Of a stretch of 64,000 nucleotides of DNA, positions 21,996 through 56,363 are shown piece after piece (position 1 is the first letter of the stretch; every line of letters begins with the position of its first letter). The notes beneath the pieces were generated by a model, which worked only from the letters and a program-made list of their open reading frames with translations, did not search any database and had not been told where the DNA came from. The stretch is from Squalus acanthias. Lineage: Eukaryota. The DNA is taken from the NCBI GenBank assembly GCA_030390025.1, contig CM059431.1, positions 96,784,001 to 96,848,000 on the forward strand, written 5' to 3'. A program made the position numbers and the translations under genes.

Positions 21996-22059
21996 TTACT
22001 TTTTGTGTCTGTTGACTGAGAATTATACAATTTCTGAAACTTATTTGTTTCCATTCCAG

Positions 22060-22200: not shown

Positions 22201-22240
22201 GTATGATGGGTACATTGCTGAGGGCTTTCTGTGTCCCATC

Positions 22241-22363
22241 GGTAGAATGGGATCTATAAATAGCTGCATTCACGGGTAGAATGGGATCTATAAATAGCTG
22301 CATTCACGGGTAGAATGGGATCTATAAATAGCTGCATTCACGGGTAGAATGGGATCTATAAAT
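22241..22363. repeat. 34-bp tandem repeat, ~3.6 copies
   Basis: ggtagaatgggatctataaatagctgcattcacg. Confidence 0.95.
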
Positions 22364-22369
22364 AAAGAG

Positions 22370-22945
22370 TGAATCGTTTTCATTTACATAGCACCTTTCA
22401 TCTCAGGATATCCAAAAGTGCTTGACAGCCAGTGAAGTATTTTGAAGTGTAGTCACTGTTGTAACCTAGGCAAAATGGCAGCTAATTTGCGCACGGCAAG
22501 GTCCTACAAGCAGCAGTAGTATAATGGCCAAACAATTTGTTTTTAAAGTTGTTGATTGAGAGATAAATATTGGCCAGGACAGGGAGGAGAATTTCCCTGC
22601 TCCTCTTCAAATAGTGGCCGTGGGATCTTTTACATCCACCTGAGAGCAGACGGGGCTTCGGTTTAACGAAAGGCGGCACCTCCGACAGTGCAGCACTCCC
22701 TCAGTACTGCCCCTCCGAAAGTGCGGCGCTCCCTCAGTACTGCCCCTCCTACAGTGCGGCGCTCCCTCAGTACTGCCCCTCCTACAGTGCGGCCCTCCCT
22801 CAGTACTGCCCCTCCGACAGTGCGGAGCTCCCTCAGTACTGCCCCTCCGAAAGTGCGGAGCTCCCTCAGTACTGCCCCTCCGACAGTGCGGCACTCCCTC
22901 AGTACTGCCCCTCCGACAGTGCAGCGCTTCCTCAGTACTGACCCT
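22370..22945 (-). mobile_element. SINE (Deu-domain type) with an internal 33-bp segment amplified ~8x
   Basis: Matches the single-unit copy at 59795-60060; tandem cctccgacagtgcggcgctccctcagtactgcc at 22679-22941. Confidence 0.8.
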
Positions 22946-23777
22946 TGTGCAAAAAGCATTTTGACATTAAAAACTTCAAGTCTACTAAAGTTGCTGGTTA
23001 GGAATCCCACCAATGTGGGAAGAGGACAATGGACTTTGAGTGAAGTTGTTGCTGGTTGTCACTACAGGAGTGAAAACAGGTGCTGTCTGCAAGGCTTGGG
23101 TAAAGGTTGTAAACATTCGTCCGATACACACAGCAAGAGCTTGAGCTTTGGAACCATCCCCCGACATGGGACTGCGACGGCTTTGGCAATTAAGGAGCGA
23201 GAGAGAGGAAGCCTGGCAGTCCATACTGGGCGTGAGACCTGGTGTCAAAGCATCAGAGAGGCCACAACTGTTTGCTCTGGGGAGCTGTGCCACACTCCGC
23301 AATGAGGAGAAGTGCTGCTGTCTGCCTGCTGTACCTGTGCCACTCGATACTGGAGATGTAATCTCCCCGTCTCTGCCTGCTGTACATGCCCCACTCCAGT
23401 ATTCGCTGCTGGATACTGGAGATGTAATCTCCCTCTCTCTCGGGGCATCACATGGGAGCAAGTTCTTCTGAGGAGGAATATTTGGTGTGGACTGAACGAA
23501 GCCCATGCTTTGAGTCTCCATGTGAATGCAGTCCCTGGTGTGCTGCACAAACTAGGGAGGTCTCTGGTTTGATCTGAGTTGTGCTGAGTTAGCTGGAATC
23601 GGACAACCTAGTTTGTTTGCTGTAAAAAGGCAATAATCTCACGAAATGAGGATAGGTGATAATCTGGTTCAGTCTCCAGAGCCAATATCCACAGCTCTGT
23701 TGGAGAAGAGTGTCTCGAAACCAGGTGTCCGGATGCTTTACACAAGTTGTAGATCAAGAAAAATATGTCGTCAGTCT

Positions 23778-24232
23778 GAGGACGGGTGCCGAGGCACAGG
23801 AAGTCGCTCCGAGGCCTGGCGCCGAGGGACAGGAAGTCGCTCCGAGGCACAGGAAGTCGCTCCGAGGACGGGCGCTGAGGCACAGGAAGTCGCTTCAAGG
23901 GACAGGAAGTCGCTCCGCGGGCTGGTGCCGAGGGACAGGAAGTCGCTCCGAGGCCTGGTGCCGAGGGACAGGAAGTCGCTCCGAGGCACAGGAAGTCGCT
24001 CCGAGGACGGGCGCTGAGGCACAGGAAGTCGCTTCGAGGGACAGGAAGTCGCTCCGCGGGCTGGTGCTGAGGGACAGGAAGTCGCTCCGAGGACGGGCGC
24101 TGAGGCACAGGAAGTCGCTCCGCGGGCTGGTGCCGAGGGACAGGAAGTCGCTCCGAGGACGGGTGCTGAGGCACAGGAAGTCGCTCCGAGGGACAGGAAG
24201 TCGCTCCGAGGGACAGGAAGTCGCTCCGAGGG
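23778..24232. repeat. Compound minisatellite of 20- and 33-bp units, 16 copies of core acaggaagtcgct
   Basis: Direct count of the core motif. Confidence 0.95.
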
Positions 24233-26628: not shown

Positions 26629-29600
26629 ATAGAAAGATAGGAGCAGGAGTAGGCCATTCGGCCCCTCGAGCCTGCTCCACCATTCAATGCGATTATGGCT
26701 GATCATCCAAACTCAGTACCCTGTACCTGCCTTCTCCCCATATCCCTTGATACCTTTAGCTTTAAGAAATATATCTAACTTATTCTTGAATATATTTAAT
26801 GACTTGGCCTCAACTACCTTCTGCGGTAGAGAATTCCACAGGTTCACCACTCTCTGGGTGAAGAAATTCTTCCTCATTTCTGTCCTAAATGGCTTACCCA
26901 TTATCCTTAGATTATGACCCCTGGTTCTGGACTCTCCGACCATCGGGAACATTCTTCCTGCATCTAGTTTGTCCAGACCTGTCAGAATTTTATATGTTTC
27001 GATGAGATCCCCTCTCATTCTTCTATACTCCAGCGAGTATAAGCCCAATCGTCCCAATCTCTCCTCATAAGTCATTCCTGCCATCCCAGGTATCAGCCGT
27101 GTGAATCTTCGCTAAACTCCTTCCATGGCAAGAACATCCTTCCTCAGATAAGGCGACCAAAACTGCACACAGTACTCAAGGTGTGGTCTCACCAAGGCCC
27201 TGTACAACTGCAGCAGGACATCCCTGTTCCTATACTCAAACCCTTTCGCTATGAAGGCCAACATACCATTTGCCTTCTTCACCGCCTGCTGCACCTGCAT
27301 GCTTACTTTCAGCGACTGGTGCACAAGGACACCCAGGTCTCGTTGCACTTCCCCTTCTCCCAATCTATTGCCATTCAGATAATAGTCTGCCTTTCTGTTT
27401 TTGACACCAAAGTGGATAACCTCGCATTTATCCACGTTATATTGCATCTGCCACGCTTCTGCCCACTCTCCCAACCTGTCCAAATCATCCTGGAGTTTCT
27501 CGGTATCCTCCTCGCAGCACACACTCCCACCCAGCTTTGTGTCATCTGCCAACTTGGAGATATTACATTTAGTTCCCTTATCTAGATCATTAATGTATAT
27601 TGTGAATAGCTGGGGTCCAAAGACCGATCCCTGCGGTACCCCACTAGTCACTGCTTGCCACTCGGAAAACGACCCATTAATTCCTACTCTCGCTTTCTGA
27701 CCGCCAACCAGTTCTCTATCCAAGTCAATACCTTGCCCCCAATCCCATGTGCCTTAACTTTACACGCTAATCTCTTATGCGGGACCTTATCGAAAGCCTT
27801 TTGAAAGTCCAAATACACCAAATCTACTGGTTCTCCCTTATCTATTTTCCCAGTTACATCCTCAAAAAATTCCAGTAGATTAGTCAAGCACGATTTACCT
27901 TTTGTAAATCCATGTTGACTTTGTCCGATCCTGTCACTGTTTTTCAAGTGCTCAGCTATTACATCCTTTATAATGGACTCTAGCATTTTCCCCACTACCG
28001 ATGTCAGGCTTACCGGTCTGTAATTCCCCGCTTTCTCTCTACCACCCTTTTTGAATAGTGGGGTAACATTAGCTACCCTCCAATCCATGGGTACAGTTCC
28101 AGATTCCATCAAATGTTGGAAGATGATCAGCAATGCATCTACTATTTCTAGGGCCACTTCCTTAAGTACCCTAGGATGTAGATTATCAGGCCCTGGGGAT
28201 TTATCGACCTTCAATCCTGTCAATTTCCCTAACACCATTTCCCTGCAAATACTGATTTCTTTCAGTTCCTCCCTTTCATCAGACTGTATGTTCTCCAACA
28301 TCTCTGGGAGGTTATTTGTGTCCTTTGTGAAGACAGAACCAAAATATGCATTTAATTGGTCTGCCATTTCTTTGTTCCCCATTGTAACTTCCCCCGCTTC
28401 TGACTGCAAGGGACCTACACTTGATTTCACTAATCTTTTTCTCTTCACATATCTATAAAAGCTCTTACAGTCAGTTTTATGTTCCCAGCAAGCTTACTTT
28501 CATATTCTATTTTCCCCTTCTTAATGAATCCCTTTGTCCTCCTTTGTTGAATCCTAAACTGCTCCCAATCCTCAAGGTTACTGCTTTTTCTGGCCAATTT
28601 ATATGCCCTCTCCTTGAATCTTATGCTATCCCTAATTTCCCTTGTTAGCCACGGTTGAGTCACCCTTTTTGTTTTATTCTTATGCCACACTGGGATGAAC
28701 AAATTCTGTAGTTCATCCATGCAGTCTTTGAATGTTTGCCATTGCCTATCCACCGTCAACCCCTTGAGTGACATTCCCCAATCAATCCTGCCCAATTCGC
28801 GCCTCATACTATCGAAGTTTCCTTTATTTAAATTCAGGACCCTAGTCTCTGATTCAACTACTTCACTCTCCATCCTAATGAAGAATTCTATCATATGATC
28901 ACTCTGACCCAAGAGGCCTCGTACAACAAGATTGCTAATTAATCCTTTCTCGTTGCATAATACCCAGTCTAAGATGGCCTGATCTCTGGTTGGTTCCTCG
29001 ACATATTGTTCCAGAAAACCATCTCGTAAACATTCTAGGAATTCCTCCTCCACAGTATTTTTACTAATTTGGTTAGCCCAATCTATATGTAAATTAAAGT
29101 CACCCATGATGACTGCTGTGCCCTTTCTGCATGCTTCTCTAATTTCCCTTTTTAATGCCGTCCCCAACCTCCGTATTACTGTTTGGAGGTCTATATACAA
29201 CTCCCACTAACGTTTTTTGCCCCTTGTTATTTCTCAGTTCTACCCATACAGATTCCGCATCATCAGAACTAATATCCTTCCTTTCAATTGTGTTAATCCC
29301 CTCTTTAACCAGCAATGCTACCCCACCTCCCTTTCTTTTTTGCCTATCTTTCCTAAATATTGAATAACCCTGGATGTTGAGTTCTCAGCCTTGGCCACCC
29401 TGGAGCCATGTTTCTGTAATCCCAATCAAATCGTATTCATTTACCTCTATTTGCGCAGCTAATTCATCCACCTTGTTCCCAATGCTCCTTGCATTAAGAC
29501 ACAAAGCCTTCAGGTTTGTTTTTTTAACGCTCTCAGACCTATATGAATTATTATTTACTGTGACCATGTTTGATTTAAACCGTTGAGTTCTTTGCCTTCT

Positions 29601-30511: not shown

Positions 30512-30710
30512 TCAAGTGGGTGGTGATTTTGGGGTAGACCTGGACACACCTTGTACATTATCACTGGCCAGGCTGAATGGTGAATGGCCAAAAGAGCTGG
30601 ATACAAGAGTTACACTTGAAAGCACGGGGTGAATGCTTGGAAAGTCTGAATATATCAGAAGACCTGCTCTGTTCTCACCAACATGAATGTATGGATGAGA
30701 AACACCTTGG
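30512..30710 (-). pseudogene. Diverged relic copy of part of the giant exon (homologous to ~32165-32365)
   Basis: Reads QGVSHPYIHVGENR...SLASDNVQGVSRSTPKSPPT* vs QGGSYPSTHVDNR...SLVSDNAQGVSRCSPKSPT; the middle part matches in a shifted frame. Confidence 0.75.
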
Positions 30711-31347: not shown

Positions 31348-31353
31348 TTTATT
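31348..31353 (-). terminator. Candidate polyadenylation signal of the minus-strand giant-exon gene
   Basis: AATAAA on - strand ~220 nt after the TAG at 31571. Confidence 0.6.
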
Positions 31354-31570: not shown

Positions 31571-34500
31571 CTAGGAAGCAGTTAAAACGTCATCGTCTCC
31601 ATCATCATAAAATGAAATAACTGAGTATCCAGATGGAAAAGAAGCATCATCACTCCTGGGAGATGATGACTGGATCAGAGAGCTGGATGTACTTGATAAA
31701 TAATCATTGCTCATGGTACACAATGAATGGGTAGAGGAACTCCAAGCATCCGATGAATCATCAGGACTAGTGGACGAAGGAAATATGGAAGAACTAGGCG
31801 CAGGTGATAAAATAGATGCCAAATCCGTGGAATACTTGTACCGAGATAACGGTACAAAAGAGCGTGAAACTCGTGGTATAATTTTAGTAGCATGAGTGGA
31901 CTGTGACTGGCTGGAAGAATCAGATTCATCGTGTTTTATATAAGCACTCATGCTGTGTGGTTGGCTGCAAGAATGGTGCACACCTTGAACTTCTTCATCA
32001 ACATGGGCAAACCTGGAAAGATGTGCAAGACCTTGTACACTATTATCAGTATGGGTGTACATTGATCGGATGGAAGGAAGAGGTGCACCTGGTACATTAC
32101 CTGGCACCTGAGTAGATGGTAATTGAGTGGATAAATTAGATGCAATTTGTTGACCATCACCAACATAAGTGGGTGATTTGGGGGAACACCTAGACACACC
32201 CTGTGCATTATCACTGACCAGGCTGACTGACTGGGCAGAAAAACTGGATCCAGGTATTACACTATAAAAAGCATGGGGTGATTGTGAATGCTTAGAAGGT
32301 CTGAATACATGTAATATATCTGATCTGTTATCAACATGAGTGGATGGATAGGAACCACCTTGTGGATTATTACTAATAGGACTAGATCGGGATTGGGTGT
32401 ACGAACAAGAAACACCTTGTGGATTATTACTAACCAGATTGGACCGGGACTGGGTGGGTGAATAGGAACCACCTTGTGGATTATTACTAACAGGACTGGA
32501 CCGGGACTGGGTGGGTGAATAGGAACCACCTGGTAGATTATTACTAACAGGACTGGACCTGGATTGGGTGGATGAACGAGAAACAGTTTGTGGTTTATTA
32601 CTAACATGAGTGGTTTGGGACTGGGTGGATGAACTAGCACCTCTTGTGTTATCAGTATGGGTGTGCAGTAATTGGGGGGAAGTCGGAGAAAGGCTTTGCA
32701 AGTTATCACCCACTTGGGTGGATAGTGATTGGATATAATATGATGCATCTTGTGCATTACTATTAACGTGAGCTGACCATGATTGGGCAGATGAATTGAA
32801 CACAATTTGATCATCATTATCAGTGGGAGACAGTGATTTGGCTACATCTAATGAATTATCATGGATAGCATGGGAGGTTGGTGAATGGATGTAGGGTCTG
32901 AAAACTTGCTTATCAGTAATACTAGTGGATGAATGAGATACACCTCGTACATTTTTACTAACAGGATTGGGCAGTGAACTGGTGGAAGAAGGAGCAGCTT
33001 GTACATTATCTGCCACATCAGCAGACGATGATTGGGTGGCTGGAATATAAGGAACTTGTTGACCATCACCAACATAAGTGGATGGTGACTTGGGGTAAGA
33101 CTTGTATAGACCCAATATATTATCTCTGACAAGGGTGGATAGTGAATGGTTGGAAGAATTGGATACAGTTTGCTCACTCTCTTCAGTTTCGGGCAGTGAA
33201 GGGACAGAACTAGATGCAGGTCTTGCATTATGATCAACAGAACCAGATGGTGAATGGATGGAAAAACTAGATGCACTTTTCGCACTCTTTTCAGCTTTGG
33301 ACCATAGTGAATGGACAGAAGAACTAGATGCAGGTCCTGCACCATAATAACCATGGTGAGGCGGTGAATGGATGGAAGGTCTGGATTTATGTAATGAATC
33401 TTGTCTGATATCATCATCATCATCATCATCATTGGTATTAACAGGATTGAGCTGTGTTTTGGTGGAAGGGCACGCAGCTTGTTCATTATCTTCACGGGTG
33501 AACGGAGTGGAAGATGCAGATACACCTTGAATGTCATCAATATGGGTGCCAAATATTTGGTTGAATGTGCACGGTAAACACTGCAAATTATCCGCAATAA
33601 GAGAGGACAGTGATAGGGTAGAAGAACTTGATCCACTTAGTGCATTGGGGTCAATGTAGGTGCACTTGGAAGAATTGGATATACCTGGTGTATTATCATG
33701 GGCAAGGGTGAACATTGATTGGGAAGAAGAATGAGAGAAGTCTTGTCTATGATCTGTTCCATAAGAGTGCTGTGATTGCATGGATGAATTGGATACATCT
33801 TGCTGACCATTATTAAAATAGATTGATGGTGATTTTGGGGGTGACTTGGATAGATTCTTGCTGAGAGAGGTGGATAGTGAGTGCATGGAACGACTGGCTG
33901 CAGTTCTTGCAGTGCGATCACTGTGAGAGGATGGTGAATTGACAGGAGGCCTGATTTCATGCAATACACATTGTCTGTTATCAACATTATTGGGGAATGA
34001 TTGGGTTGAGGGATGAGAGACACCTTTTGTATTATTAATGTGAGTGGACAGTGATGTGGGAGAACAAACATCTCTCACATCACCACAGGTGCAAACCTGA
34101 GTGGAAGAAGCAGACACATCTTGTATATTTTCAACATGAGAAGATGGCACTTGGCTTGATGAATGAGATGGACTTTGTGCGCTGTGGTTAACAAAGGTGC
34201 ACAGTGAATGGGTGGGAGATATAGATACACCTCTTGCATCATCCTGAACAGAAATTGATGGTGATCTGGCAGAAGAATATGTACATTGTGCATTATCTGC
34301 CACATGCGTAGACAATGTTGATGGTCTACAAGTTGTAAGTTCATCATCAACATCTGTGTACAGTGATTTGGAGGAAGACTTGAATTCGTCTAGTGCATTA
34401 TCTTTGACATGGACGGATGGTAAATGGATGGAAGAACTGGAAATATTTTGTTCACAGTCATGCAGAGAATAGGAATGGAGTGAAGAACTGGATGGTCTGA

Positions 34501-37500
34501 ATGTTTGTAATACACCTTGTCTATTTTCACCAACACGGGTAGACAGTGATTGGGACAGAGAACGAGAAATGCCTTGTTGTATAGTGTCACCTACATGAGT
34601 GGACCGTGATTGGGACAGAGAACGATAAAGGCCATCTGCATGGGTGGACAATGATTGGGACAGAGAACGAGAAACGCCTGGTATAGTGTCATCTGCATGG
34701 GTGGACAGTGATTGGCACAGAGAACGAGAAACGCCTTGTATAGTGTCATCTGCATGGGTAGACCGTGATTGGCACAGAGAACGAGAAATATCTTGTATAG
34801 TGTCATCTGCATGGGTGGACAGTGATTGGGACAGAGAACGAGAAACACCTTGTATAGTGTCATCTGCATGGGTAGACCATGATTGGCACAGAGAACGAGA
34901 AATGTCTTGTATAGTGTCATCTGCATGGGTGGACAGTGATTGGGACAGAGAACGAGAAACGCCTTGTATAGTGTCATCTGCATGGGTAGACCGTGATTGG
35001 CACAGAGAATGAGAAACGCCATCTACATGGGTGGACAGTGATTGGGACAGAGAACGAGAAACGCCTTGTATAGTGTCATCTGCATGGGTAGATCGTGATT
35101 GGCACAGAGAACGAGAAACGCCATCTGCATGGGTAGACCGTGATTGGCACAGAGAACGATAAACACCATCTGCATGGGTAGACAGTGATTGGGACAGAGA
35201 ACGAGAAACGCCTTGTATAGTATCATCTGCATGGGTAGACCGTGATTGGCACAGAGAACGAGAAACACCATCTGCATGGGTAGAACGTGATTGGCACAGA
35301 GAACGAGAAACGCCATCTGCATGGGTAGAACGTGATTGGCACAGAGAACGAGAAACGCCATCTGCATGGGTGGACAGTGATTGGGAGAGAGAACGATAAA
35401 CACCTTGTATAGTGTCATCTGCATGGGTAGACCGTGATTGGCACAGAGAACGAGAAACACCATCTGCATGGGTGGACAGTGATTGGCACAGAGAATGAGA
35501 AACGCCTTGTATAGTGTCTGCATGGGTAGACCGTGATTGGCACAGAGATCGAGAAACGCCAAGTACAGTGTCATCTGCATGGGTGGACAGTGATTGGATG
35601 GGTAAGTTAGATACAGCTGGTGCAATACTATCAACATGAGTGGACAGTGAATTGCTGGGGGGTTTGGATACAGTTCCCACACTGCCATCTACATAAGGAA
35701 GTGATGAATAGTTGGGATAACTGGATCCACTATGTGGATAATCAGTAACATTAGAAGCTAATGAATGGGTGACAGAATCAGATACACTTTGTTTATTACT
35801 ATCAACCTGAGAAGTTGATGAATGGATTGAAAGTCCGGTTCCACCTTGTTTGTTAGCAGCAACATTGGAACACGGTGATTGGATGGAAGGATGCAACAGA
35901 TCTTGTGCCTCACCAGCAACATGCGAGAGCAATGATTGGGTGGAAGAACAACAACTATCTATCAGATTATCTTCGACATGAGTGGACAGTGATTGCATGG
36001 GTAAGTTGTATGCACCTTGTAAAACATCACCAACAAAGATGGATGGTGAATGATTGGAAAAACTGGATATATATCCTGTGTCAGCATTGGCAGGGATGAA
36101 TAGTGAATTGCTGGAAGAGTTGAATACAGTTCTTGCATTATAATAAAGATGATCAGGTGAATAAGTGGATGCATTCCATACTCCACTGTCAAAATGGGAA
36201 GAGATTGAATGTCTGGATACACGCAGGACACTTTGTATGTTATCAATACTGGATGGTGGTGACTGGGTGGAAGAATTAAATACATGTTGTACATGATCAT
36301 TAATATGAGTGGCAGATTCAGGTTCATTGTCACCAAAATTGGTGGGCAGTGATTGGAAGGAAACATGAGATACACTGCGTTTTTTGTCACCAACCTGGAT
36401 GGGCAGTGATCCGATAGAAACATGGGGTGCACCTTGTTCATTGTCACCAACATAGATGGGCAGTGATTGGTTGGAAGAATGCGGTACACCTTGTGCATTA
36501 TTTTCAACACAGGTGAATACTGATTTGGTGGTGGAATTGGATACATTTTGTATGTTATCATGAAAACGAGAGGACAGTGACTGTGTGGGAGAATAAGATA
36601 CACGTGCACTGTCATTAGCATGAGGGGACAGTGATTGAGCGGAAGATGCATGTGCTTTGTCATTAGCACGAGGGGACAGTGATTGAGCGGGAGAATAAGA
36701 TCCACGTGCTTTGTCATTAGCACGAGGAGACAGTGACTTTGCAGGAGAGTAAGATGCACGTGCTTTGACATTAGCACGAGGGGACAGTGATTGAGCGGGA
36801 GAATAAGATCCACGTGCTTTGTCATTAGCACGAGGGGACAGTGACTTTGCAGGAGAGTAAGATGCACGTGCTTTGTCATTAGCACGAGGGGACAGTGATT
36901 GAGCGGGAGAATAAGATCCACGTGCTTTGTCATTAGCACGAGGGGACAGTGACTTTGCAGGAGAGTAAGATGCACGTGCTTTGTCATTAGCATGAGGGGA
37001 CAGTGATTGAGCGGGAGAATAAGATGCACTCTCTGTGTTGTCAACACAGGTGGACAATGATTTAATGGATGAATCATTAATGCCAATAGACAGTAAATGA
37101 CATGGTGACTTACTGTTTATACTATCGTCCACATGGGAACATGGTGAAGAGATGGAGAAATTCCATACATGTCTTGTACTAACATCAATATCGGGAGATG
37201 GGGAACGGTTGGAAGGTCTGGATATTTGGTGTACACTACCATCAACAGGGGTAGATGGTGGAAGAATGGCAGAACCAGACAAATATTTGAATATACCTTG
37301 TTCCTTATCAACAGCACAGGACACTGATCTAGAGGAAGAATTAGATGTACCTTGTGCATTATGTTTAACAGGGGTGGAAGAATTAGATACACATTGTACA
37401 TCAACTACGTGGGTGCATAACGGTCGGGTGGAAGAGTTGGACGCATGCTGTGTATTATCAGCAACATGGCTATGTAGTGAATCTTTGCCATTCTCATGTG

Positions 37501-39174
37501 TCAGTGCTTCACTATAACAATAAGGATATATAAACTGTGCATTTGGCCTTGATCCAAGAGAATAGTGGCGTGATTTTGGTGGGCTAATGGATCTTGCTCT
37601 GCTAGCTCTCGTATGTCTATCTGCTACCTGGTTAACTGATAGTGATTCCGTGTAAGAGCAGGATCTTTTGTGAGGGACATGGAAGATTCGGGTTATCGGT
37701 ATTTTTATTGGCTTTTGATGAGCATCATTCCTTATCGATGAGGTGTTATCTTGTACCTGGTGTCCTTCAGAATTGGTATATGGCGATTGGACAGGAGAAT
37801 AACACACAGCTCGTTCATTATCATCAGCTGAAGTGTCTGGTGGTCTGATGGAATAACTTGATACTCCTTGTATATTACCAGGAACATGTGGGGATGATAG
37901 CTGGATGGATGAACCCAATGTAATTGGCTTATTGCTGTCCTGTTTGGATGATTCACTGAAACAGTAAGTGTATTCAATGGATTCTTTGAGACTTAATCTA
38001 GGTGAATAGGGACATGATTTTTGTTGGCCAACAGATTTTGTTTTTCTCTCTCTCACGTGTCTATCTGTTCTGTGATTAACTGACACGGATCTAATGTGAG
38101 AGGAGGATCTTCTATCAGTAGGATGGAAGATTCGAGTTGTAGGTATTTTTATAGGCTTTTGACAGTCACCCCAGTTGTGTGAGTGAACGTCATCATCTTG
38201 TGCTCTGTATTGCTCCACACAGGAAGGCCTAGCTATGGCTTGAACTTTATCAGTCGCATGGGGGGATAATGATTGAATGAAATGCCCAGATGTGTGTGTT
38301 ATATCATCATCAGTGTGGAATGGCAGTGTTTGGATAGAAGATGTATATATACTTGGCACATTGTCATCATGGAAGAACACTGAGTCAGTGGAATAATTAA
38401 ATACATCTTGTTCATTATTGCCAACTTGTGTGGATGGGGATTGTATGGGAGAACTGGAGGTACCTTGTATATTGGCATCAGCATGTGGGTACAGTGTTTG
38501 AATTGGTGAAGTAGGGACCCCATCCGCATTGATATCAGTATGCCTGGGTGGCGATGAGATGGATCCATGTACGCAATCATCAAGTTGATTAAATGTCAAT
38601 CTGATTGATGAATTGGCTATAGCTTGTACGTCATCGGCTTGGGTGGGTGGTAACTGGTTGTGATGAGGCGAATGGGAATTGATGCGAATCATTATGGGAG
38701 AGGATGGTTCTGTTGTAACTCTTCCTTTTTTTGACCGTTGGACAGAATATCCACTTGCATACAAGCTGCCAATTTGTTCTGTGTATTCCCTCATGTTATC
38801 TGCTTTTGAAGGCATACGTCCTGCATTATCAGAATCTTTTCTAGAACCTGTTGGATATGGTGAAAAGTGGTGTTTGGGCATAGATTGTTCCAGCATATCT
38901 GAATGATTCCAAAACGATTGTTCTGGGAGCGGGGGTGCAATAGGTAAGTCACCATACGATTTGCTTCTGTCTTTCCTGCTTTCAGTAAAAATGGACTCAT
39001 TGCTCCCGTGATGTTTGCCTCTCTTGTGAATTTTGCGCTGTGGGAATTTCAAAAAAGTCACTTTGTGATTCCTTTTCATTTTCTTATTATGTCCATCAAT
39101 TGCACCCTTCCTGTGTTCAACTGGAATGTGCTGAAATCCCCCAAGAAGTGGCCTATAATTTGAGACATAAACAC
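31571..39174 (-). CDS. Giant terminal coding exon (~2,530 aa) of an unrecognised Ser/His/Thr-rich repetitive protein
   Basis: Stop-free frame from 39241 to the TAG at 31571; internal repeats vary only by multiples of 3 nt; phase-compatible acceptor cataaag|GT at 39174 (alternative attccag|TT ~48 nt further in); exact 5' boundary uncertain. Confidence 0.88.
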
Positions 39175-39479
39175 CTTTATGTTGACATTTATACAAATAT
39201 TGAAAGATACAGGCAACACTACAGTGGAACTGCCACTTAGATTATATGCAATGGATGAATTCTAATAAAATATTCCCATTGTGAGTATATTTATTATTTT
39301 AATATTAGTGTTTCTTTCAGTTCCACAGTGTACAAGCTGGAAATATCCAGCCGGGAACCCTATATTCCTAGATCTGCCCACCAAGACTTAGCTCAATTCC
39401 TTCCACTTGACATGTTCTATTACTGACTCCACACAACCCATTTAATATTGAGGAAAAATTCTCCCTGCACTGTACTCAC

Positions 39480-39678
39480 AGTAAATCATTCGGAAGGTAA
39501 CCAGCGTACTGTTCAGCTGGTCTCCATCTCTGTAAAAGTCCAATATGTAGTATTCATCTAACATTATTACACATCTCTGCCCAAATTCTTTCCTTGGCAT
39601 GAATTTTCTATTTGCTTCAGAAAACATAATGAACCCGAGTTTAACATTGTAAAATGTGAGAAATGCCCATTTTTCATC
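39480..39678 (-). CDS. Putative internal exon of the giant-exon gene (199 bp, phase 0 to 1)
   Basis: ttcattattag|GAT...TAC T|gtgagt; DEKWAFLTFYNVKLGFIMFSEANRKFMPRKEFGQRCVIMLDEYYILDFYRDGDQLNSTLVTFRMIY. Confidence 0.7.
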
Positions 39679-39969
39679 CTAATAATGAACCATGAACAAT
39701 ATGGGAATGTGAGGCTTTCTGAGAATGCTTAGTTAAGCAATAAAGGAGAACTAGTAAACAATCACATTGGAACTTTGCCAAGCAGCTAGGAGCCACTTAA
39801 CATCTGATACAAGAGGTAAGTGGTATAAATATTGTTAATCCAGCTGTGGACTACACAATATTTGTGGAAAAATCCTCATTTACCCATGAGAGGCTGCACA
39901 AACTATTATGGATAAACATGAGCAGATTTTTACATGGGGAGATTAGCTCCAAATACGCAAAGGAGGCAC

Positions 39970-40036
39970 CAAAGTGCATCCACACCATTCACAGCCTGAG
40001 GAGGCCCTGGCTGGATGTCTGGTAAAAGTTGCACAA
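39970..40036 (-). CDS. Putative internal exon (67 bp, phase 2 to 0)
   Basis: Good acceptor ctttgtgtatttccttaag|T; weak donor TTG|gtgcct; CATFTRHPARASSGCEWCGCTL bridges the phases of the flanking exons. Confidence 0.45.
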
Positions 40037-42196
40037 CTTAAGGAAATACACAAAGTCAAGGTAAGAGTTGTGAAGTAACAGCACAGGACACACAGACATA
40101 AAGGAAAGTAGCATGAAGTGCTACTCAGTTGCTAGCTCAGTTGGTAGCACTCTCAGCCTAAGTCAGAAGCTTGTGAATTCAAGTCTCACTCCACAATACA
40201 TCAGCAGACTTCTCTATCGCCATAACAGGGGCTATTGTTAGTGAACAACAACTTGCATTTATATAGAAGAGCGTCCCACGGTGCTTCACAGAAGTGTAAT
40301 CAGATGAAAATGGACACCAAGACAAAGAAGCAGATATTAGGAGGGGTGGCTAAAAGCATGGTCAAAGAAATAAGTTTTAAGGGGAGTCTTAAGGAGGAGA
40401 GGTTTGGGGAGGACATTCCAGAGAGTGGGGCCTCGATAGCTGAAGGCACAGCTGCCATTGGTGGGCAAAGTGAATGGGGGATGCACAACAGGCTAGAGTC
40501 AGTGTATATGGGCATGTTGAGGTAGCATATCAGACAAATTGCAGATTAAATGCACACTGTGATAGGTAGCAGCGATTCTACAGGCCCTCCACTGTCCACA
40601 GTCCTGATGCTTTACAGCTTCGTCCTGAATAAATCACTAACTTTTTTTCACATTGTCCCTCCCTGTTGAGGGACTTCAGTGATGTGGAGAAGCTGGGATT
40701 GCTCTCCTTAGAGCAGAGAAGGTTAAGGGAAGATTTAATAGACGTATTCAAAATGATGAAGGGTTTCGATAGAGTAAATAAGAAACTGTTTCCAGTAGCT
40801 GGAGAGTCAGTAACCAGAGGTTACAAATTTAAGGTCATTGATTCGATGTTATGTATGAGTTTCGCCTTTTATCATAGGATTTAGGCAGTGTGATGAGTAT
40901 TTCTTTCTTCAGTGGCATGTATAAATAATTTGCAATGCACTAATTGTAGAAGAGCAAACTACAGAGGGATGAAGGAGGACTTTGTGTGGAAAGATTAACT
41001 GGTAAACAGTGGAGCAACACTTGGGATTATTTAAGTGTTGGATGGGTCAGCACAGTCTAGGGCTGCATCTGGGGACAGTCCAGGGGCTGCGACTAGGAAC
41101 AGTCATGGGGCAGTCTAGGACTGTTGTTTCAGATTACTGGAAATAAAGGACAAAAACAATGCAGGTGACAAATCTAAAGCCAGTGACACAACAGTCACAA
41201 GAAACAAAGAGAAAGGTAAAGAGAGCTGAGAGGGAATATGGGGGGTGAAAGTTTGCAGCCAACGTAAAGGGAAACAGCAAAGATCTTTATGAACACTCGA
41301 GGAAAAAGATTATTAAAGATGTGTGAAGCCACTCAACTGAGATGATTATGGGAGAAAAGAAATGAATACTTTGCTTCAGAACTTAGAGCACAGAAAGTCT
41401 TTAGGCTTGTGGATAAAGGCAGTCAATAGAAATTTAATATGGAGAAATGTGAGGTGATACATTTTGGGTGGAATAATGAGTGGAAATGTACACTAAGTGG
41501 TGCAACTTTAAAAGAGGAACAGGGAGAACTAGGGGTTCAGATACAGAAATCACTACAACTGGCAGGACACATTAATAAAGTTGTTTTTAAAAAAGAGCAT
41601 ACGGCAATCTGAGGTTTTATAAGAGCTAAATAGTAATGCTAAATCTATACAAATCATTGTTTAAGCTCCAGTTAGCATATTTCTAGAGGAATAGAATTAA
41701 AAAGGAATAGAACTAAAAAGTAGAGAAGTTCTGTTAAACTTGAATAGAACCTTGGTTAGACCACACTCGGAGTACTGTGAACAGTTCTGATCTCCATATT
41801 AGAAAAGGATTTAGAGGGACTAGAGAAAGTGCAAAAAAGGTATGATACCAGAACTGAGAACTTAGAACTATCAGACTTATAACTGAACGGGCTGGGGCTC
41901 TTTTCTGTAGAAAAGAGAAGGCTGAGGGGTGACCTGATAGAGATCTTTAAAATTATGAAGGGGTTCGATAGGGTAGACGTAGTGAAGATGTTTCCACTTG
42001 TGGAGGAGACCAGAACTAGGGGCCATAAATATAAGATAGTCACTAATAAATCCAATAGGCAATTCAGGAGAAACTTCTTTACCAGAGAGTGGTGAGAATG
42101 TGGAACTCGCTACCACAGGGAGTGGTTGAGGCGATTAGCAAAGATACATTTAAGGGGAAGCTAGATAAGCACATGAGGGATAAAGGAATAGAAGGA

Positions 42197-43594
42197 AACA
42201 ACAACAGAAAATGCTGGAAAAACTCAGCAGGCCAGGCAACATCCGTGGAGAGAGAAACAGAGTTAACATTTCAGGTCGAAACCCTTCGTCAGAACTGAGA
42301 AAAAAGCAGGAAATGAAACAGTTAAAAAAGCAAGGGGGAGGCTGGGGGGAGGAGTAAAAGAACAAAAGGGGTGGTCTATGGTAAGTAGAGACATTAAGAG
42401 ATGCTCAAGGCAAGACGAGATGGTAATAGGACAGGCTAAGAAACAAAAGGTGGCTAGAAGTGTGAAGTGTGAAATGCCCTCGACCGTGTCCGTTCTATCT
42501 CCCGCACTTCTGCCCTCACCCCGGCCCCTCCCTCCCGGAACCACGATAGAGTTCCCCTTGTCCTCACCTTTCACCCCACCAGCCTCCACATTCAACGGAT
42601 CATCCTCCGCCATTTCCACCACCTCCAACGTGATCCCACCACCAAACGTATCTTCCCCTCACCTCCCCTTTCAGCATTCCGTATGGACCGCTCCCTCCGA
42701 GACACCCTACTCCACTCCTCTATCACCCCCAGCACCCCTTCTCCCTTGCCTGGCACCTTCCCGTGCAAGTGCAGGAGATGCAACACTTGCCCTTATACAT
42801 TCCCCGCTTCCCACTCTCCAGGGCCCCAAACACCCCTTCCAGGTGAAACAGCGATTTACTTGTACTTCTTGCAATCTAGTATACTGTATTCGCTGCTCAC
42901 GATGTGGTCTCCTCTACATTGGGGAGACCAAACGCAGATTGGGTGACCGCTTTGCGGAACACCTCCGTTCAGTCCGTAAGGGTGACCCCGAGCTTCCGGT
43001 CGCTTGTCATTTTAATTCACCTCTCCACGCCCACTCAGACCTCACCGTCCTCAGCCTCGGCATTGTTCCACGGAAGCTCAGCGTAAGCTCGAGGAACAGC
43101 ACCTCATCTTCCGATTAAGCACTTTACAGCCTTCCAGACACAATATCGAGTTCAACAATTTCAGATCATAACCTCGGCCCCTACCACATATATATATATA
43201 TATATATATTATCCACCTTTTGGTTTGTGCCTTTTCCCTTATTTTTCTCTCTCTCCCCCCACGGCAGCTGTCTCTCATTCTGCCAGCATTTCACACTTCA
43301 CACTTCTGAGCCACCTTTTGTTTCTTAACCTGTCCTATTACCATCTCGTCTTGCCTTGAGCATCTCTTAATGTCTCTACTTACCATAGACCACCCCTTTT
43401 GTTCTTTTATTCCTCCCCCCAGCCTCCCCCTTGCTTTTTTATCTGTTTCATTTCCTGCTTTTTTCTCAGTTCTGACGAAGGGTTTCGACCTGAAACGTTA
43501 ACTCTGTTTCTCTCTCCATGGATGTTGCCTGGCCTGCTGAGTTTTTCCAGCGTTTTCTGTTGTTTCAATTTTCCAGCATCCGCAGTATTTTGCT
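42197..43594 (+). mobile_element. Penelope-like element, 5'-truncated, with ~280-bp inverted termini and GIY-YIG endonuclease remnant
   Basis: FTCTSCNLVYCIRCSRCGLLYIGETKRRLGDRFAEHLRSVR (GIY-YIG, CxxC); 42197-42477 is the reverse complement of ~43287-43566; ~14-bp TSD aaggaatagaagga / aagaaatagaagga. Confidence 0.92.
43467..43503 (+). ncRNA. Minimal type I hammerhead ribozyme motif in the PLE terminus
   Basis: agtt-CTGACGA-a-gggt-ttcg-acct-GAAACGTT-aact: intact CUGANGA and GAAA..UH core, palindromic ACGU stem III. Confidence 0.75.
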
Positions 43595-43717
43595 AAGAAA
43601 TAGAAGGATATGCTGATAGGGTGAGATGAAGTAGGGGTGGGAGGAGGCTTTTGTGGAGCATAAACACCAGCATGGACCAGTTGGGTCAAATGGCCTGTTT
43701 CTGTGCTGCAATTCTAT

Positions 43718-44473
43718 GGCCCAGAAATTCCGTTCGCAGGCCTCCCGCGGGCGGAGGGCTGCGATCTGGAAAAATCTGCACCTGGACCGGAGGGCTCCCA
43801 GGAGGCGCAGAGTTCCGTTGCTGGGCCTCTCCAAACTGCCAGTGTGCAGGGCCCACGTGATCCAAGAGGCGCAGGTAGTTCACAGCGTCCCTGGGATCAC
43901 GTGGGCCATGGGGAGCCAATCAGAGAAGGGAATCTCCCTTCATACATTTGACAGGAAGACCTGTCAAATATATGAATGGAGATCACCCCCAAAACATAGT
44001 AAAACTTTAAATAAATTAAAAAAAAAAAATCACATTTTTAAAATGACTTTAAATGACATAAATTAAGTATTTTAAACAAAAATTTTATTTTTTGAAAAAA
44101 ATAATTAAAGTTTTTAACGGGGCTAAAAATAAACTTACCTTTCTTTAAAGTATTTTTAAATGATAAATCAGTGGAAATTAAAAAAAACACTTTTTTCAAC
44201 TCTTATCCTGGTAAAAGCAGGCCTTACGCTGCTTTTCCAGGCGCAAGAATTGTAAGTGTTTTCTGCGGGCGGAGGGTCTCCCAAAAATGGAACTCTCCTC
44301 CCGCAGAGGCCCTTCTCCCGGGCAGCCGGAGGATCTGTCAAGAGCTTTCTTGACAGCTCGGAAATGCCGGTTTCCAGCGCATGCGCAGTGTATGCCTAAA
44401 ACCGGCATTTCTGATGGCCCTGTGGGTGAGTACACAGCGCGTACACACCCGTAGGGAACGGAATTTCTGCCTC
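43718..44473. mobile_element. MITE (Harbinger-like) with TIRs and 3-bp TSD
   Basis: GGCCCAGAAATTCCGTTC ... GAACGGAATTTCTGCCTC, flanked by tat/tat; GC-rich arms with an AT-rich centre. Confidence 0.78.
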
Positions 44474-45491
44474 TATGTAATTACAACCAGTCTGCCCACG
44501 CTGCACAGAAGGCTTTGGCTGGAGTTTGGATATCTGTGAGCAAGATTACTGACACCTGGAAACCTGTCACCCACAGTGACTGACTAACGATCACTAGAAT
44601 CCAACCATTCTAAATTATAATTGTTTCAGGGGAAGGGTTAAATGTGACTGTAGTGTTGCAGGGAGTGGGGTGGGGGGTTCACATGCTGTGTCAATTCTGG
44701 TACAACAATGCTGTCTAGGAACCACAGGAAATGCCATTTTGGTGACCTGTTACTTGAGGCTCTAGCAACGGGTGTGAGGGAATATCCAAGCACGAGCTAT
44801 GGAGTGGATGGGTATCTCTTCCCCCTGAAATGAAGGAGGTGCCAGGACATTGCCGAGCGAACAAACACTGTTCTGAACCCAGTGGAGTTACGGGGGATGC
44901 TGCAAGAAGTTGTCTGGCATACGAAACCTGGCCAGGTAAGTCATTTTATATTAACGTGCACCTGCCTCATGGCATGGGAAAAGGTCAACACTGACAAACA
45001 TCTCAGCCAGAAATGTTAGCCCATCTGAGTCTGAAGTGCAGTTCGCACCTGAAATGTCAACTTGTGTGCTCTCTCCCCAGATGCTGCCTGAACTGCTGAG
45101 TGTTGCTGAGAGAGCAGTGCTGGACTGGCGACAATTTATATGAATCGAAGGAAAGATACAAGGGTGAGGGGAATGAGTTGGTTGATGTGCCAAGCCCCTG
45201 GCAACCCAATTCAGAAAGCACAATGATGGAAATACCTTTTAAACATCCAATGTATCATACAGACCAGGCTCTGTCCAGACTTTCTCAGTGTCCTGTGTGC
45301 TGTCAAAGTTTCAATACCGCTTTTAATTTGATCTTTAACATATGGGAATGCCTGTTTCCTTGGGGAACACTGATCCTTCACCCTTTGTGGGGTAGAGTGA
45401 AACTGGAGAGTCTGCCCGAGCTCACGGTTGACCCAGTCAATCTCCCGAACTGCTGCCCATGGTGAGTTGGAGGATGCAGTCTATCACTCAC

Positions 45492-45608
45492 TTGTAGAAG
45501 ACTTTCTGCTGTGTATACTGCAATGGCTCCATCCTGTGTTTGGGCCCCAACTCTCCACTGTCATCTCGAAATAGCGCATGTCCAAACTTATTCTTCACCA
45601 GCAACACT
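45492..45608 (-). CDS. Putative internal exon of the giant-exon gene (117 bp, phase 2 to 2)
   Basis: ctttcactatctgattttag|A GTG...TAC AA|gtgagt; only one open frame: VLLVKNKFGHALFRDDSGELGPKHRMEPLQYTQQKVFY. Confidence 0.7.
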
Positions 45609-56221: not shown

Positions 56222-56363
56222 TGTTGGTTATCCATGATGGGGCAAGATGTAGAAAGAGCCGTGACTGAAACTACTGAAAATACGAGAAATGTGATCACGA
56301 AGCCAAGGGCCAGAAGGTGATTCAGAGGATAATTCTTTTCTGGTTCCCATCCATCATTAGCCT
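56222..56363 (-). CDS. Putative exon encoding a transmembrane/signal-anchor segment (142 bp, phase 1 to 2)
   Basis: tttttttttataaaacag|AG...CA|gtgagt; ANDGWEPEKNYPLNHLLALGFVITFLVFSVVSVTALSTSCPIMDNQ. Confidence 0.72.

Follow-up and report, generated by a model that had tools for sequence, protein, structure and literature searches.

We describe, on the minus strand of a 64-kb stretch of Squalus acanthias DNA (the window), a gene that appears to be real and apparently restricted to elasmobranchs, with no relative detectable outside that group. As part of the explanation set out below, which we regard as probable when taken as a whole, the gene spans at least 25 kb, and a 14-nt exon carrying the ATG is spliced directly, or by way of a 117-nt cassette exon, into a last exon of 7.58 kb.

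Open reading frame and predicted exons

A stop-to-stop frame of 2,556 codons was found on the minus strand at 31571..39241. When the same 7.67 kb was subjected to 200 dinucleotide-preserving shuffles, the longest open frame had a mean of 147 codons and a maximum of 235 codons, bearing out the stop-free frame of more than 2,500 codons that a first-pass annotation had claimed at this place. Across the interval the coding frame contained only its terminal stop, compared to 37, 260, 176, 114 and 137 stops in the other five frames, and the runner-up frame in the window (562 codons) was located inside a 33-nt satellite. The first-pass annotation had given no strand for the frame; it lies on the minus strand. 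The 7.6-kb exon proposed there was recovered as a giant coding exon of 7,582 nt, but the frame opens with 30 codons read from the intron, and the exon begins at 39152. The predicted gene model consists of the following features:

56222..56235, minus strand: coding exon 1, 14 nt, ATGGATAACCAACA, followed by the donor GTGAGT
45492..45608, minus strand: cassette exon, 117 nt, 39 codons, frame-preserving (TTTTAG|A...TACAA|GTGAGT)
31571..39152, minus strand: giant terminal exon, 7,582 nt including the TAG stop (31573-31571), 2,526 residues, acceptor ATTATAG
31348..31353, minus strand: candidate poly(A) signal AATAAA, 218 nt past the stop

The AATAAA had been placed about 220 nt past the stop and is present on the coding strand, as weak evidence given 72 such hexamers in the window. 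Exon 1 (56235-56222) encodes MDNQ plus two bases of the next codon in the start context CCCATCATGG, and no second match to MD[NDEG][RQKH][QRK] occurs upstream of the big exon on the minus strand; the corresponding start (MDNQQ, MDDQQ, MDDRQ or MDNRQ) recurs in the models of all five species. The cassette exon (45608-45492) encodes (Q)VLLVKNKFGHALFRDDSGELGPKHRMEPLQYTQQKVFY(K). It matched the ray protein P0004 by tblastn with an E of 2.6e-5, and 17 of 34 residues were identical to P0008 by BLASTP (E 2e-8, for that single comparison). This exon is found in the ray models and not in the two shark models. With GTGAGT donors, TTTTAG and ATTATAG acceptors and all junctions in phase 2, the three-exon model yields spliced products of 2,531 and 2,570 amino acids without and with the cassette, respectively, neither containing an internal stop. 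Without the cassette, the predicted N-terminus mirrors the shark models (MDNQQ followed by the big exon); with it, the N-terminus mirrors the ray models (MDDQQ, then cassette, then big exon).

The window is rich in transposable elements, with a GIY-YIG element at 42.3-43.1 kb between CR1-like LINE pieces (27.1-29.2 kb and 49.7-54.0 kb), and an ORF of transposon or endogenous viral origin might be expected in such surroundings. The TE-derived frames (RVT_1, Exo_endo_phos, GIY-YIG) are pieces of 138-283 amino acids, in agreement with their earlier description as broken. In contrast, the giant ORF has predicted spliced upstream exons, and its five orthologues matched no reverse transcriptase, endonuclease, integrase, gag, envelope or transposase family, as had been noted for RT, endonuclease and transposase motifs from the letters. 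In the runs of two related species one contig each covered 37030-40336, at ordinary depths of approximately 18 and 9, which are not copy numbers, while the TE-bearing intron bins of the same runs reached depths of 1e3 to 3.8e6. From this one contig per run over the 5' coding part, the gene appears to be single-copy. The earlier statement that the exon holds no transposon insertions was checked to the extent that the protein matched no TE family and that the only look-alike of the ORF DNA elsewhere in the window is its own 190-nt relic, a partial duplicate. These findings, including the ordinary contig depth and the absence of such domains, make a transposon or viral origin scarcely conceivable.

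Repeat structure and selection on the frame

The protein is rich in the residues first listed for it (S 21.3%, D 6.6%, P 6.5%, T 6.3%, V 6.1%, Q 6.0% and H 5.4%), with E at 1.7% and Gly at 4.2%. Its body (approximately residues 240-2280) is built of degenerate 19-residue polar units with the core [VI]xxS[LP]xQS[L]STH[AV]DDN[I]Q, and a lag of 19 ranked first in the autocorrelation of each non-array segment, as it did in four of five orthologues. Tandem arrays, an internally duplicated module and one extragenic copy were located as follows:

36566..37029, minus strand: recent tandem array 1, 54-nt (18-aa) units SYSPAQSLSPRANDKARA, about 8.7 copies, up to 93% matches
34537..35597, minus strand: recent tandem array 2, 57-nt and 45-nt units (SRSLSQSLSTHADDTIQGV, SRSLCQSRSTHADGV), about 320 residues
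32340..32648, minus strand: tandem array 3, 57-nt units (SYSPTQSRSSPVSNNPQGG), 5.4 copies
37928..38161, minus strand: copy 1 of a duplicated 78-residue module, residues 361-438, QKPIKIPTTRIFH...YCFSE
37484..37717, minus strand: copy 2 of the 78-residue module, residues 509-586, holding the invariant RxRSISPxKS
30522..30709, minus strand: decayed partial duplicate of the coding sequence for residues ~2295-2357, about 0.9 kb downstream of the stop

Arrays 1 and 2 are absent from the four orthologues, and at the site of array 3 the orthologue arrays differ in length. Both copies of the 78-residue module were found in all five proteins; in S. acanthias they share 34 of 78 residues (BLASTP, E 1e-18). 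The 11 TRF rows that fall within the frame all show periods that are multiples of 3 (45, 54, 57, 102, 108, 147 and 192), compared to periods of 33, 32, 29, 37, 27/29, 122, 86, 139 and 172 for the non-coding arrays of the same window. The repeat body presumably grew from a 57-nt unit before the split of sharks and rays. Within the explanation that we consider probable as a whole, each lineage still re-amplifies it on its own, by lengths that are always multiples of 3 nt.

Repeats of this kind could in principle hold a frame open without any function of the protein, through their tandem origin and a stop-poor composition, the models of the relatives then being prediction artefacts. Recent tandem arrays make up approximately one quarter of the frame, another frame on the sense strand meets as few as 37 stops over its 2,556 codons, and constraint on the sequence is weak. 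However, the approximately 2,000 non-array codons are likewise open, the shuffles that keep composition reach no more than 235 open codons, and the array periods are all multiples of 3. The extragenic duplicate at 30522..30709 (approximately 190 nt; blastn 74.6% over 197 nt, E 8.5e-29; tblastn 48% over 64 amino acids) is broken by one frameshift and one stop in three-frame translation, whereas the gene connects to a conserved ATG exon by canonical in-phase splice sites, keeps its short islands invariant and is open and collinear in lineages where drift predicts tens of stops. An open frame of this length without protein-level function is very unlikely.

The drift expectation was obtained by simulation. 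In 30 runs each, neutral change produced 40-66 in-frame stops at 59% identity and 51-92 at 47%, compared to none observed. Since drift to the observed identities gives 40-92 stops and none is seen, openness of the frame is strongly selected. Among the substitutions listed against the DNA of a close relative (at least 32), 8 were synonymous and 24 non-synonymous (pN/pS 0.90) and none created a stop; the orthologue models are open as well, so that the stops in related species which would speak against a gene were not found. An omega of 0.3 or less was rejected (P = 0.004 or lower) and an omega of 0.5-1 was compatible with these at least 32 listed substitutions, while repeat units cut by period gave pN/pS values of 0.67, 0.91 and 1.97. 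The contigs of the relatives carry 35 gap letters within 37030-40336, itemized without positions, and the absence of new stops refers to the listed substitutions. These findings indicate that selection keeps the frame open and retains a few short islands, and that constraint at the level of residues is weak, most of them drifting almost freely.

Relatives in sharks and rays

Orthologue models were found in RefSeq for two sharks, Scyliorhinus torazame (XP_072332086) and Chiloscyllium punctatum (XP_072434218), and two rays, Narcine bancroftii (XP_069746477/8) and Leucoraja erinacea (XP_055492583/4), together with a 307-aa fragment from the sawfish Pristis pectinata (XP_051881514). The four full-length orthologues are collinear over their whole length, with identities of 59, 52, 47 and 45%, and share the conserved islands, the 19-residue periodicity and the 5-codon start exon; the ray models also share the 39-codon cassette exon. 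They differ in length (1,824 to 2,378 amino acids) and in lacking the two large arrays of the window protein (approximately 115 and 320 residues), and the skate model has a 33-residue array of its own at another place. All are automated predictions and uncharacterized, and a literature search on their accessions and loci found no paper. The protein had been called unrecognized, which is somewhat too strong, because RefSeq already carries these models, two of which bear the automatic name serine-rich adhesin for platelets-like.

An HMM search with the N-terminal profile gave five matches among 1,835,955,588 representative proteins, all elasmobranch, and no non-elasmobranch relative among these 1.84 billion proteins. 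No match to the protein was found in Pfam, PDB sequences or the ESM Atlas. The open orthologues, the drift simulation, the lack of transposon or viral traits and the elasmobranch-only profile matches support the original view of a real, selectively maintained and probably lineage-restricted gene.

The gene may instead be the fast-evolving orthologue of a known bony-vertebrate or holocephalan gene, whose similarity has decayed or whose counterpart is unannotated in the libraries searched. According to the available text of PMC7660931, many lineage-specific genes are detection failures. The gene does evolve fast (45-47% identity between sharks and rays, pN/pS approximately 0.9), the protein is compositionally biased, the searches covered predicted proteins and not genomes, and no flanking gene giving synteny was identified within the 64-kb window. 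A rough extrapolation was made after PMC7660931, in whose available text the log score falls linearly with distance. Summed over four non-array pieces, phmmer gave 4,623 bits for the protein against itself, 1,452 and 1,466 bits for the sharks, and 1,042 and 944 bits for the rays; the N-terminal piece alone gave 1,629, 657, 593, 423 and 481 bits. For the bony-vertebrate split the shark-ray distance was multiplied by 1.6 to 2.5, a range based on general knowledge and assumed ratios. At that distance the extrapolated N-terminal score is approximately 65-210 bits, although a score driven by composition may decay otherwise, and an E of 0.001 requires approximately 32 bits (on the scale where 401 bits gives an E of 8.5e-115). 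Because the extrapolated score exceeds the score needed, a counterpart evolving at the same rate, if present in the library, should have been detected. We consider a decayed or unannotated counterpart unlikely and elasmobranch restriction the better account.

Conserved islands, proposed function and comparison with known systems

Conservation was concentrated in short islands:

39008..39085, minus strand: basic island KKMKRNHKVTFLKFPQRKIHKRGKHH, residues 53-78 of P0001, in which NLS-like patterns overlap the RVxF-type HKVTF (39053-39067)
38921..38947, minus strand: proline motif LPIAPPLPE, residues 99-107, with L99-P106 invariant in five of five proteins
32264..32305, minus strand: conserved island FRPSKHSQSPHAFY, residues 2313-2326, with R2314 and S2319-F2325 invariant
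31574..31861, minus strand: Ser/Asp-rich C-terminus, residues 2461-2556, LSPAPSSSIFPSSTSPDDSSxAWS...SPRSDD...SGYxxxSFYDD...LTAS

The best-conserved stretch, residues 61-120 (63-68% identity), holds short motifs of this kind. The invariant columns of the basic island are K53, K54, K56, N58, V61, T62, F63, K65, P67, Q68, R69, K70, K73 and K76. The NLS and RVxF search patterns were taken from general knowledge, with the exception of a consensus from PMC10454571. Each of the six orthologues carried exactly one strict RVxF match, located at the homologous place, and a bipartite-NLS pattern overlapped it in five of the six. Weighing against the motif, chance alone would give approximately 0.18 strict matches in a protein of this size (by arithmetic from composition), and the two-basic consensus [K/R][K/R][V/I]x[F/W] (PMC10454571) was matched in one of the six (RKVTF); the others, including HKVTF of the window protein, fit looser patterns only. 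PPLP was likewise present once per protein at the same place in all six, and R.R..[ST] occurred at the homologous place, in module copy 2, in five of five full-length orthologues. Toward the end of the protein, the 30-residue window at residue 2311 reached 66% identity, and the C-terminus, with invariant columns, ranked near the top of the whole protein at 63-70% over windows of the same length.

We tentatively propose, as a possibility well short of likely, that the protein is a scaffold in the nucleus that can be heavily phosphorylated. Its putative nuclear import signal would be the invariant N-terminal basic cluster, and the embedded HKVTF would be a putative dock for protein phosphatase 1 (PP1). 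PPLP, the twice-present 78-residue module with its RxRSISP and the acidic Ser-rich C-terminus may recruit partners, while the long repeat body would lend the molecule length and multivalency, not a fold. These assignments are pattern matches. Net charge is near zero (K+R 201, D+E 211). The first-pass impression of an intrinsically disordered protein received no clear backing, as the charge-hydropathy plot was borderline, with two of five orthologues and 26 of 50 100-aa windows marginally on the ordered side.

The serine content of 21%, the acidic stretches rich in Ser, the tandem repeats and the giant last exon could also suggest a secreted or matrix protein, of mucin, egg-case or biomineralization type such as an SCPP-like phosphoprotein, whose repeats would act extracellularly. 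According to the available text of PMC9122587, an elasmobranch-specific scpp gene exists that is restricted to sharks and rays, is reportedly missing from the elephant shark and is rich in potential phosphoserines; its product carries a signal peptide together with regions rich in Tyr and in Asp/Glu, and its 5' exons derive from sparc-L. Our protein resembles it, as far as that text describes it, in its shark/ray restriction and richness in potential phosphoserines. It differs in that none of these hallmarks, including sparc-L-derived 5' exons, was seen. No signal peptide was found at the N-termini of the window protein or the models (MDNQQ..., MDDQQ..., MYR..., MVDNTSLFVYNFR...), no orthologue has a hydrophobic run of nine or more residues, and the conserved N-terminal island is strongly basic. 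A secreted or matrix protein is highly improbable.

The auto-name of the ray models refers to SraP-type adhesins of Gram-positive bacteria. High serine and tandem repeats are the only likeness; the window protein has no secretion leader, no match to a binding-region or cell-wall anchor family and no hydrophobic segment, and its gene is a spliced vertebrate gene. The name was rejected as a compositional artefact.

S100-fused-type proteins such as filaggrin and hornerin have Ser/His-rich tandem repeats encoded in one giant terminal exon after tiny 5' exons, and the window gene shares this layout. It differs in lacking an S100/EF-hand N-terminus, in repeat length and composition (little Gly, 4.2%), and in being an elasmobranch and not an amniote gene.

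Ki-67, RepoMan and KNL1, vertebrate repeat proteins with giant exons, use an RVxF motif to dock PP1. The window protein differs from them in having no FHA domain, Ki-67 repeat or other family match, in its 19-residue unit and near-zero net charge, in a giant exon that is the last with nothing folded after it, and in that its PP1 docking is putative. It resembles them in a very large exon encoding a repeat-built, poorly conserved polypeptide free of membrane or secretion signals, and in having one conserved RVxF-type motif set among basic residues.

The giant exon and its gene model

The open frame at 31571..39241 lies on the minus strand and was found to span 2,556 codons (stop to stop, standard code), in agreement with the stop-free frame of more than 2,500 codons claimed by the first-pass annotation. 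The second-longest frame in the 64 kb comprised 562 codons and lay inside a 33-nt satellite. In 200 dinucleotide-preserving shuffles of the frame region, the longest open frame averaged 147 codons and reached a maximum of 235. The coding frame contained the terminal stop only, and the other five frames contained 37, 260, 176, 114 and 137 stops, respectively. At codon position 3 of the frame, T accounted for 42% and G for 9.5%. The composition of the encoded protein was as first described, with S at 21.3%, D 6.6%, P 6.5%, T 6.3%, V 6.1%, Q 6.0% and H 5.4%. Bulky hydrophobics made up 23.7% of residues, the charge-hydropathy plot was borderline, and no hydrophobic run of nine or more residues was present in any orthologue.

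The possibility that the frame belongs to a transposon or endogenous virus was considered and rejected. No reverse transcriptase, endonuclease or transposase family was matched, as the first reading by eye had it, nor was any integrase, gag or env family, and the 5' coding part was covered by one contig of ordinary depth in each of X2 and X3, coded sequencing runs from two related species. No copies of the frame were found within the window besides its own duplicate at 30522-30709. Depth in coding bins was approximately 20-31 in X2 and 10-14 in X3, compared to 24-30 and 9-15 in unique intron bins and to 1e3 to 3.8e6 in TE-bearing bins, a comparison that is supportive only, since contig depth does not equal copy number (the tool's own warning).

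The frame was resolved into the terminal exon of a gene of three exons.

Exons of the gene model (window coordinates).
56235-56222, minus strand: start exon, ATGGATAACCAACA, donor GTGAGT, context CCCATCATGG
45608-45492, minus strand: cassette exon of 117 nt, acceptor TTTTAG, A...TACAA, donor GTGAGT
39152-31571, minus strand: terminal exon, to TAG, acceptor ATTATAG, then GCCA...

Every junction was in phase 2, and translation of the joined exons showed that the frame survives skipping of the 117-nt exon. The in-phase joins yielded MDNQQPLLGGFQ... or MDNQQVLLVKNKF...VFYKPLLGGFQ..., and the two products, of 2,531 aa (MDNQQPLLGGFQHIPVEH...) and 2,570 aa (MDNQQVLLVKNKFGHALFRDD...VFYKPLLGGFQ...), had no internal stop. 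Parallel N-termini were present in the catshark (MDNQQQRGWGFQ) and the electric ray (MDDQQKFTKKKLF...IYKPLVEGFQ). The form lacking the cassette resembled the models of the sharks (MDNQQQRGWGFQH..., MDNQQSHVGSFQH...), and the form with it those of the rays (MDDQQKFTKKKLFEHSEFRDD...IYKPLVEGFQ...); in the relatives, exon borders were deduced from proteins and not from DNA. The ray orthologues carried approximately 45 additional N-terminal residues, which tblastn mapped to 45.5 kb (E 2.6e-5). In a single BLASTP comparison, the cassette peptide was identical to the comparison protein P0008 at 17 of 34 positions (E 2e-8). The start pattern MD[ND][QR]Q occurred at a single minus-strand site (56235) upstream of the giant exon, and no CpG island was found near the start exon. 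The cassette exon (45492-45608, minus strand) was intact here; among RefSeq models, it is skipped in two other sharks and included in the rays.

In X1, a run guessed to be RNA, short, identical, low-depth contigs were present in exon and intron alike, which is uninformative on transcription or splicing. No spliced joint of this gene occurred among the 15 joints listed, 1,069 others lying beyond that listing. The AATAAA reported approximately 220 nt past the stop was found on the coding strand, 218 nt after the stop, but it is weak as evidence of a poly(A) site in this genome because the hexamer is over-represented. In the whole window there were 72 copies compared to 44 expected, and none of 100 shuffles reached 72.

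Within the introns lay pieces of CR1-like LINEs and a GIY-YIG element. The intron bins at 39960-45233 had a summed contig depth of thousands to 3.8 million in the two related species, compared to approximately 20 in unique bins, indicating that the intron is packed with very high-copy repeats, unlike the adjoining exon. Broken retroelements were recovered at four places.

Broken retroelements (window coordinates).
27115-29206, minus strand
49678-53978, plus strand
42267-43115, plus strand
983-1390, plus strand

The CR1-like pieces gave Exo_endo_phos and RVT_1 matches together with a GDSL-lipase-like first ORF (PF13472); the GIY-YIG match was weak (Penelope-like), and one unmatched frame resembled a LINE reverse transcriptase C-terminus by eye. 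A GC-rich minisatellite cluster occupied 11893-16803 and 18577-24232 (33 nt x 48 copies, 32 nt x 23, 29 nt x 20, 37 nt, 27-29 nt x 31, and 33 nt), spanning a 405-N assembly gap at 14909-15313, and yielded open frames in several frames as well as spurious 'RHS repeat' Pfam matches. The sole clear non-satellite CpG island lay at 1501-2500 (GC up to 0.70, CpG observed/expected approximately 0.9-1.2). It could represent a neighbouring gene's promoter or first exon, and its open frames matched no family. The 86 other frames of at least 110 aa gave TE families and satellite artefacts only, and no flanking gene. Rfam had no match in the window.

Elasmobranch orthologues and selection on the frame

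With the full-length protein as query, a word-indexed search yielded four proteins among 7,347 candidates, named either 'uncharacterized protein' or 'serine-rich adhesin for platelets-like'.

Full-length relatives of the window's protein.
Scyliorhinus torazame, 1,824 aa
Chiloscyllium punctatum, 2,169 aa
Narcine bancroftii, 1,992 aa
Leucoraja erinacea, 2,370 aa

Match scores were 925-1,511 bits (E from 3.5e-272 down to 0), and the five-way alignment was collinear, with 59, 52, 47 and 45% identity to the window's protein. When an N-terminal HMM of 712 columns was run against 1,835,955,588 representative proteins, five matches were obtained at E<=0.001, namely the four full-length relatives and a 307-aa fragment from Pristis pectinata. 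Among shorter proteins, the word index gave none for the C-terminus (5,588 candidates) or the N-terminus (8,000 scored), a weak negative, since this search missed the sawfish fragment found by HMMER. The gene structure was common to the elasmobranch family: a 5-codon start exon encoding MD[ND][QR]Q, an optional 39-codon exon and a giant last exon.

The protein had been described as matching no known family. This holds for Pfam (no family for any of the five proteins, E up to 1), for the PDB searched by sequence (0 matches with the N-terminal profile or the whole protein) and for the ESM Atlas (no usable match with the N-terminal 720 aa or the C-terminal 267 aa), but RefSeq already contains uncharacterised elasmobranch models. 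No paper was found that joins 'serine-rich adhesin for platelets' with elasmobranchs or that names the accessions or loci of the relatives. The window's gene is the orthologue of an annotated but unstudied family of approximately 1,800-2,600 residues, found here only in elasmobranchs.

An excerpt of PMC7660931 warns that many lineage-specific cases are detection failures, and phmmer scores were extrapolated roughly in the manner described there. The N-terminal piece scored 1,629 bits against itself, 657 and 593 bits against the sharks and 481 and 423 bits against the rays. For distances 1.6 to 2.5 times that between sharks and rays, ratios that we assume from divergence times, the extrapolated N-terminal score was approximately 65-210 bits. 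Since E = 0.001 requires approximately 32 bits at the scale of the N-terminal HMM search, an equally fast counterpart should have been found, if annotated, a conclusion subject to the caveats of composition-driven score and missing annotations.

In X2 and X3, one contig each extended across 37030-40336; these contigs showed 104-106 differences and contained 35 gap letters at places not listed. The 32 differences listed between 37167 and 38649 consisted of 8 synonymous and 24 non-synonymous changes (pN/pS 0.90), and none of them created a stop. From at least 32 differences, an omega of 0.3 or less was rejected (P = 0.004 or lower), and values of 0.5-1 were compatible. Repeat units cut by period gave pN/pS values of 0.67, 0.91 and 1.97. 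Lower values of 0.30-0.56 from units picked by regular expression were dropped, since that selection favours conserved units. These values indicate that the residues drift almost freely.

The frame itself behaved differently from the drift simulated for it. Approximately 4% of all possible single-base changes would create a stop, and simulated drift (30 runs each) produced 40-66 stops at 59% identity and 51-92 at 47%, compared to 0 stops in the window and the four full-length models. Openness is therefore clearly selected. A natural control for openness was provided by a decayed 197-nt duplicate at 30522-30709 (minus strand), approximately 0.9 kb downstream of the stop. It copies residues ~2295-2357, including the FRPSKHSQSPHAFY island, at 74.6% identity (E 8.5e-29), and its frame is interrupted by a frameshift as well as a stop.

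The open frame is thus confirmed as real. Its first description as a real, selectively maintained and probably lineage-restricted gene is supported by open, collinear orthologues, by the absence of stops and by matches confined to elasmobranchs.

Repeat architecture and conserved islands

Identity along the protein was fairly even, at 40-60% in 30-residue windows, with peaks at residues 61-120 (63-68%), 511-570 (61-62%), 2311-2340 (66%) and 2461-2556 (63-70%). The order of the conserved islands was kept in the family: the basic/RVxF island, LPIAPPLP, two 78-residue modules, FRPSKHSQSPHAFY, SPAPSSSIFPSSTSPDDSS and the C-terminal LYDD. The 78-residue module is duplicated in the N-terminal third (34 of 78 residues identical, E 1e-18), and both copies were present in all species.

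A lag of 19 residues gave the highest self-identity in every non-array segment and in four of the five orthologues; at residues 920-1230, for instance, it was 0.26 compared to 0.09 expected. The core of the unit model, [VI]xxS[LP]xQS[L]STH[AV]DDN[I]Q, was recognisable from residue 242 to 2277. A PSSM counted 53 units in the window's protein, 5-12 in the orthologues and 0.1 in shuffles, counts with some circularity, since these very proteins had served to train the matrix; the independent evidence for the 19-residue unit is the lag-19 autocorrelation.

Recent tandem arrays were also detected within the giant exon.

Recent tandem arrays (Tandem Repeats Finder, window coordinates).
36566-37029
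34537-35597
32340-32648

All 11 in-frame rows had periods divisible by 3, a rule not followed by the non-coding arrays in the window (periods 27-172). The two big arrays were found in none of the four orthologues, and the skate had a 33-residue array of its own at a different place.

Candidate motifs, significance and comparison with known systems

The best-conserved stretch was a basic cluster, KKMKRNHKVTFLKFPQRKIHKRGKHH, which holds HKVTF and fits mono- and bipartite NLS patterns. A strict RVxF occurred a single time in each of the six orthologues, at this position, as HKVTF, RKVTF or HRVTF. PPLP was likewise found once in every one of the six, at a matching position, and R.R..[ST] was present at RxRSISP in five of five. 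The PP1-docking consensus given in the excerpted text of PMC10454571, [K/R][K/R][V/I]x[F/W], places two basic residues before V, which was the case in one of six orthologues. By our arithmetic, approximately 0.18 strict RVxF matches are expected by chance in a protein of this size. Three other candidates were discarded: SILK (0-1 per protein, unaligned), the LC8 anchor TQT (two of six orthologues) and a calcineurin PxIxIT reading of SPIMIRIN (out of register by eye).

Judged from these patterns, the protein could be a nuclear, phospho-regulated PP1-docking scaffold in which the repeat body would give length and multivalency. This is put forward tentatively, as possible but not probable, the motif patterns being weighed against the single orthologue with the two-basic consensus and the number of matches expected by chance. 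PP1 specificity rests entirely on regulatory subunits, and if docking were true, a clade-specific regulatory subunit would be added to PP1.

Sharks and rays diverged more than 250 million years ago. In a history that we consider unlikely, the gene would have originated in the elasmobranch stem, when a 57-nt unit was amplified to encode a protein exceeding 2,000 residues, with a nuclear-import and PP1-docking head added later; the frame would have stayed open throughout the divergence of sharks and rays while nearly all residues drift, selection would act on length, composition and a few linear motifs, and the product would be a lineage-specific PP1-targeting scaffold. Were this reading true, the gene would rank as an old, clade-defining 'orphan'.

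Sharks and rays form the sister lineage to all remaining jawed vertebrates, and to our knowledge very few clade-specific genes of elasmobranchs have been looked at. The gene described here is old as well as large, and it is unstudied: the literature searches turned up no paper that names its relatives. It offers a clean example, provided by nature, of a long frame held by selection with near-neutral constraint on residues, and it bears on gene creation by repeat expansion and on the criteria for calling a gene an 'orphan'. We regard it as a moderately interesting annotation result and not as the discovery of a new mechanism.

It also corrects the misleading automatic name 'serine-rich adhesin for platelets-like'. 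Adhesins of the SraP type have an N-terminal secretion leader, a ligand-binding region and an LPXTG anchor. In contrast, the five orthologues matched no such Pfam family (E up to 1) and had no hydrophobic run of nine residues or more. Proteins of the Ki-67/RepoMan type, which have an FHA domain, Ki-67 repeats and a PP1-binding region, differed in that no Pfam match was obtained and that LKFPQRKIHKRGKHH, which follows HKVTF, was by eye unlike the Ki-67/RepoMan motif. Elasmobranch scpp proteins, as far as the excerpt of PMC9122587 describes them, have a signal peptide, acidic Asp/Glu-rich regions and Tyr-rich regions, whereas the window's protein had no signal-like hydrophobic run and contained 1.7% E and 2.9% Y. 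The N-terminal S100 EF-hand of the S100-fused type was absent from the big exon by Pfam; the N-terminal exons, compared with the ray models alone, encode MDNQQ and a 39-residue non-EF-hand peptide.
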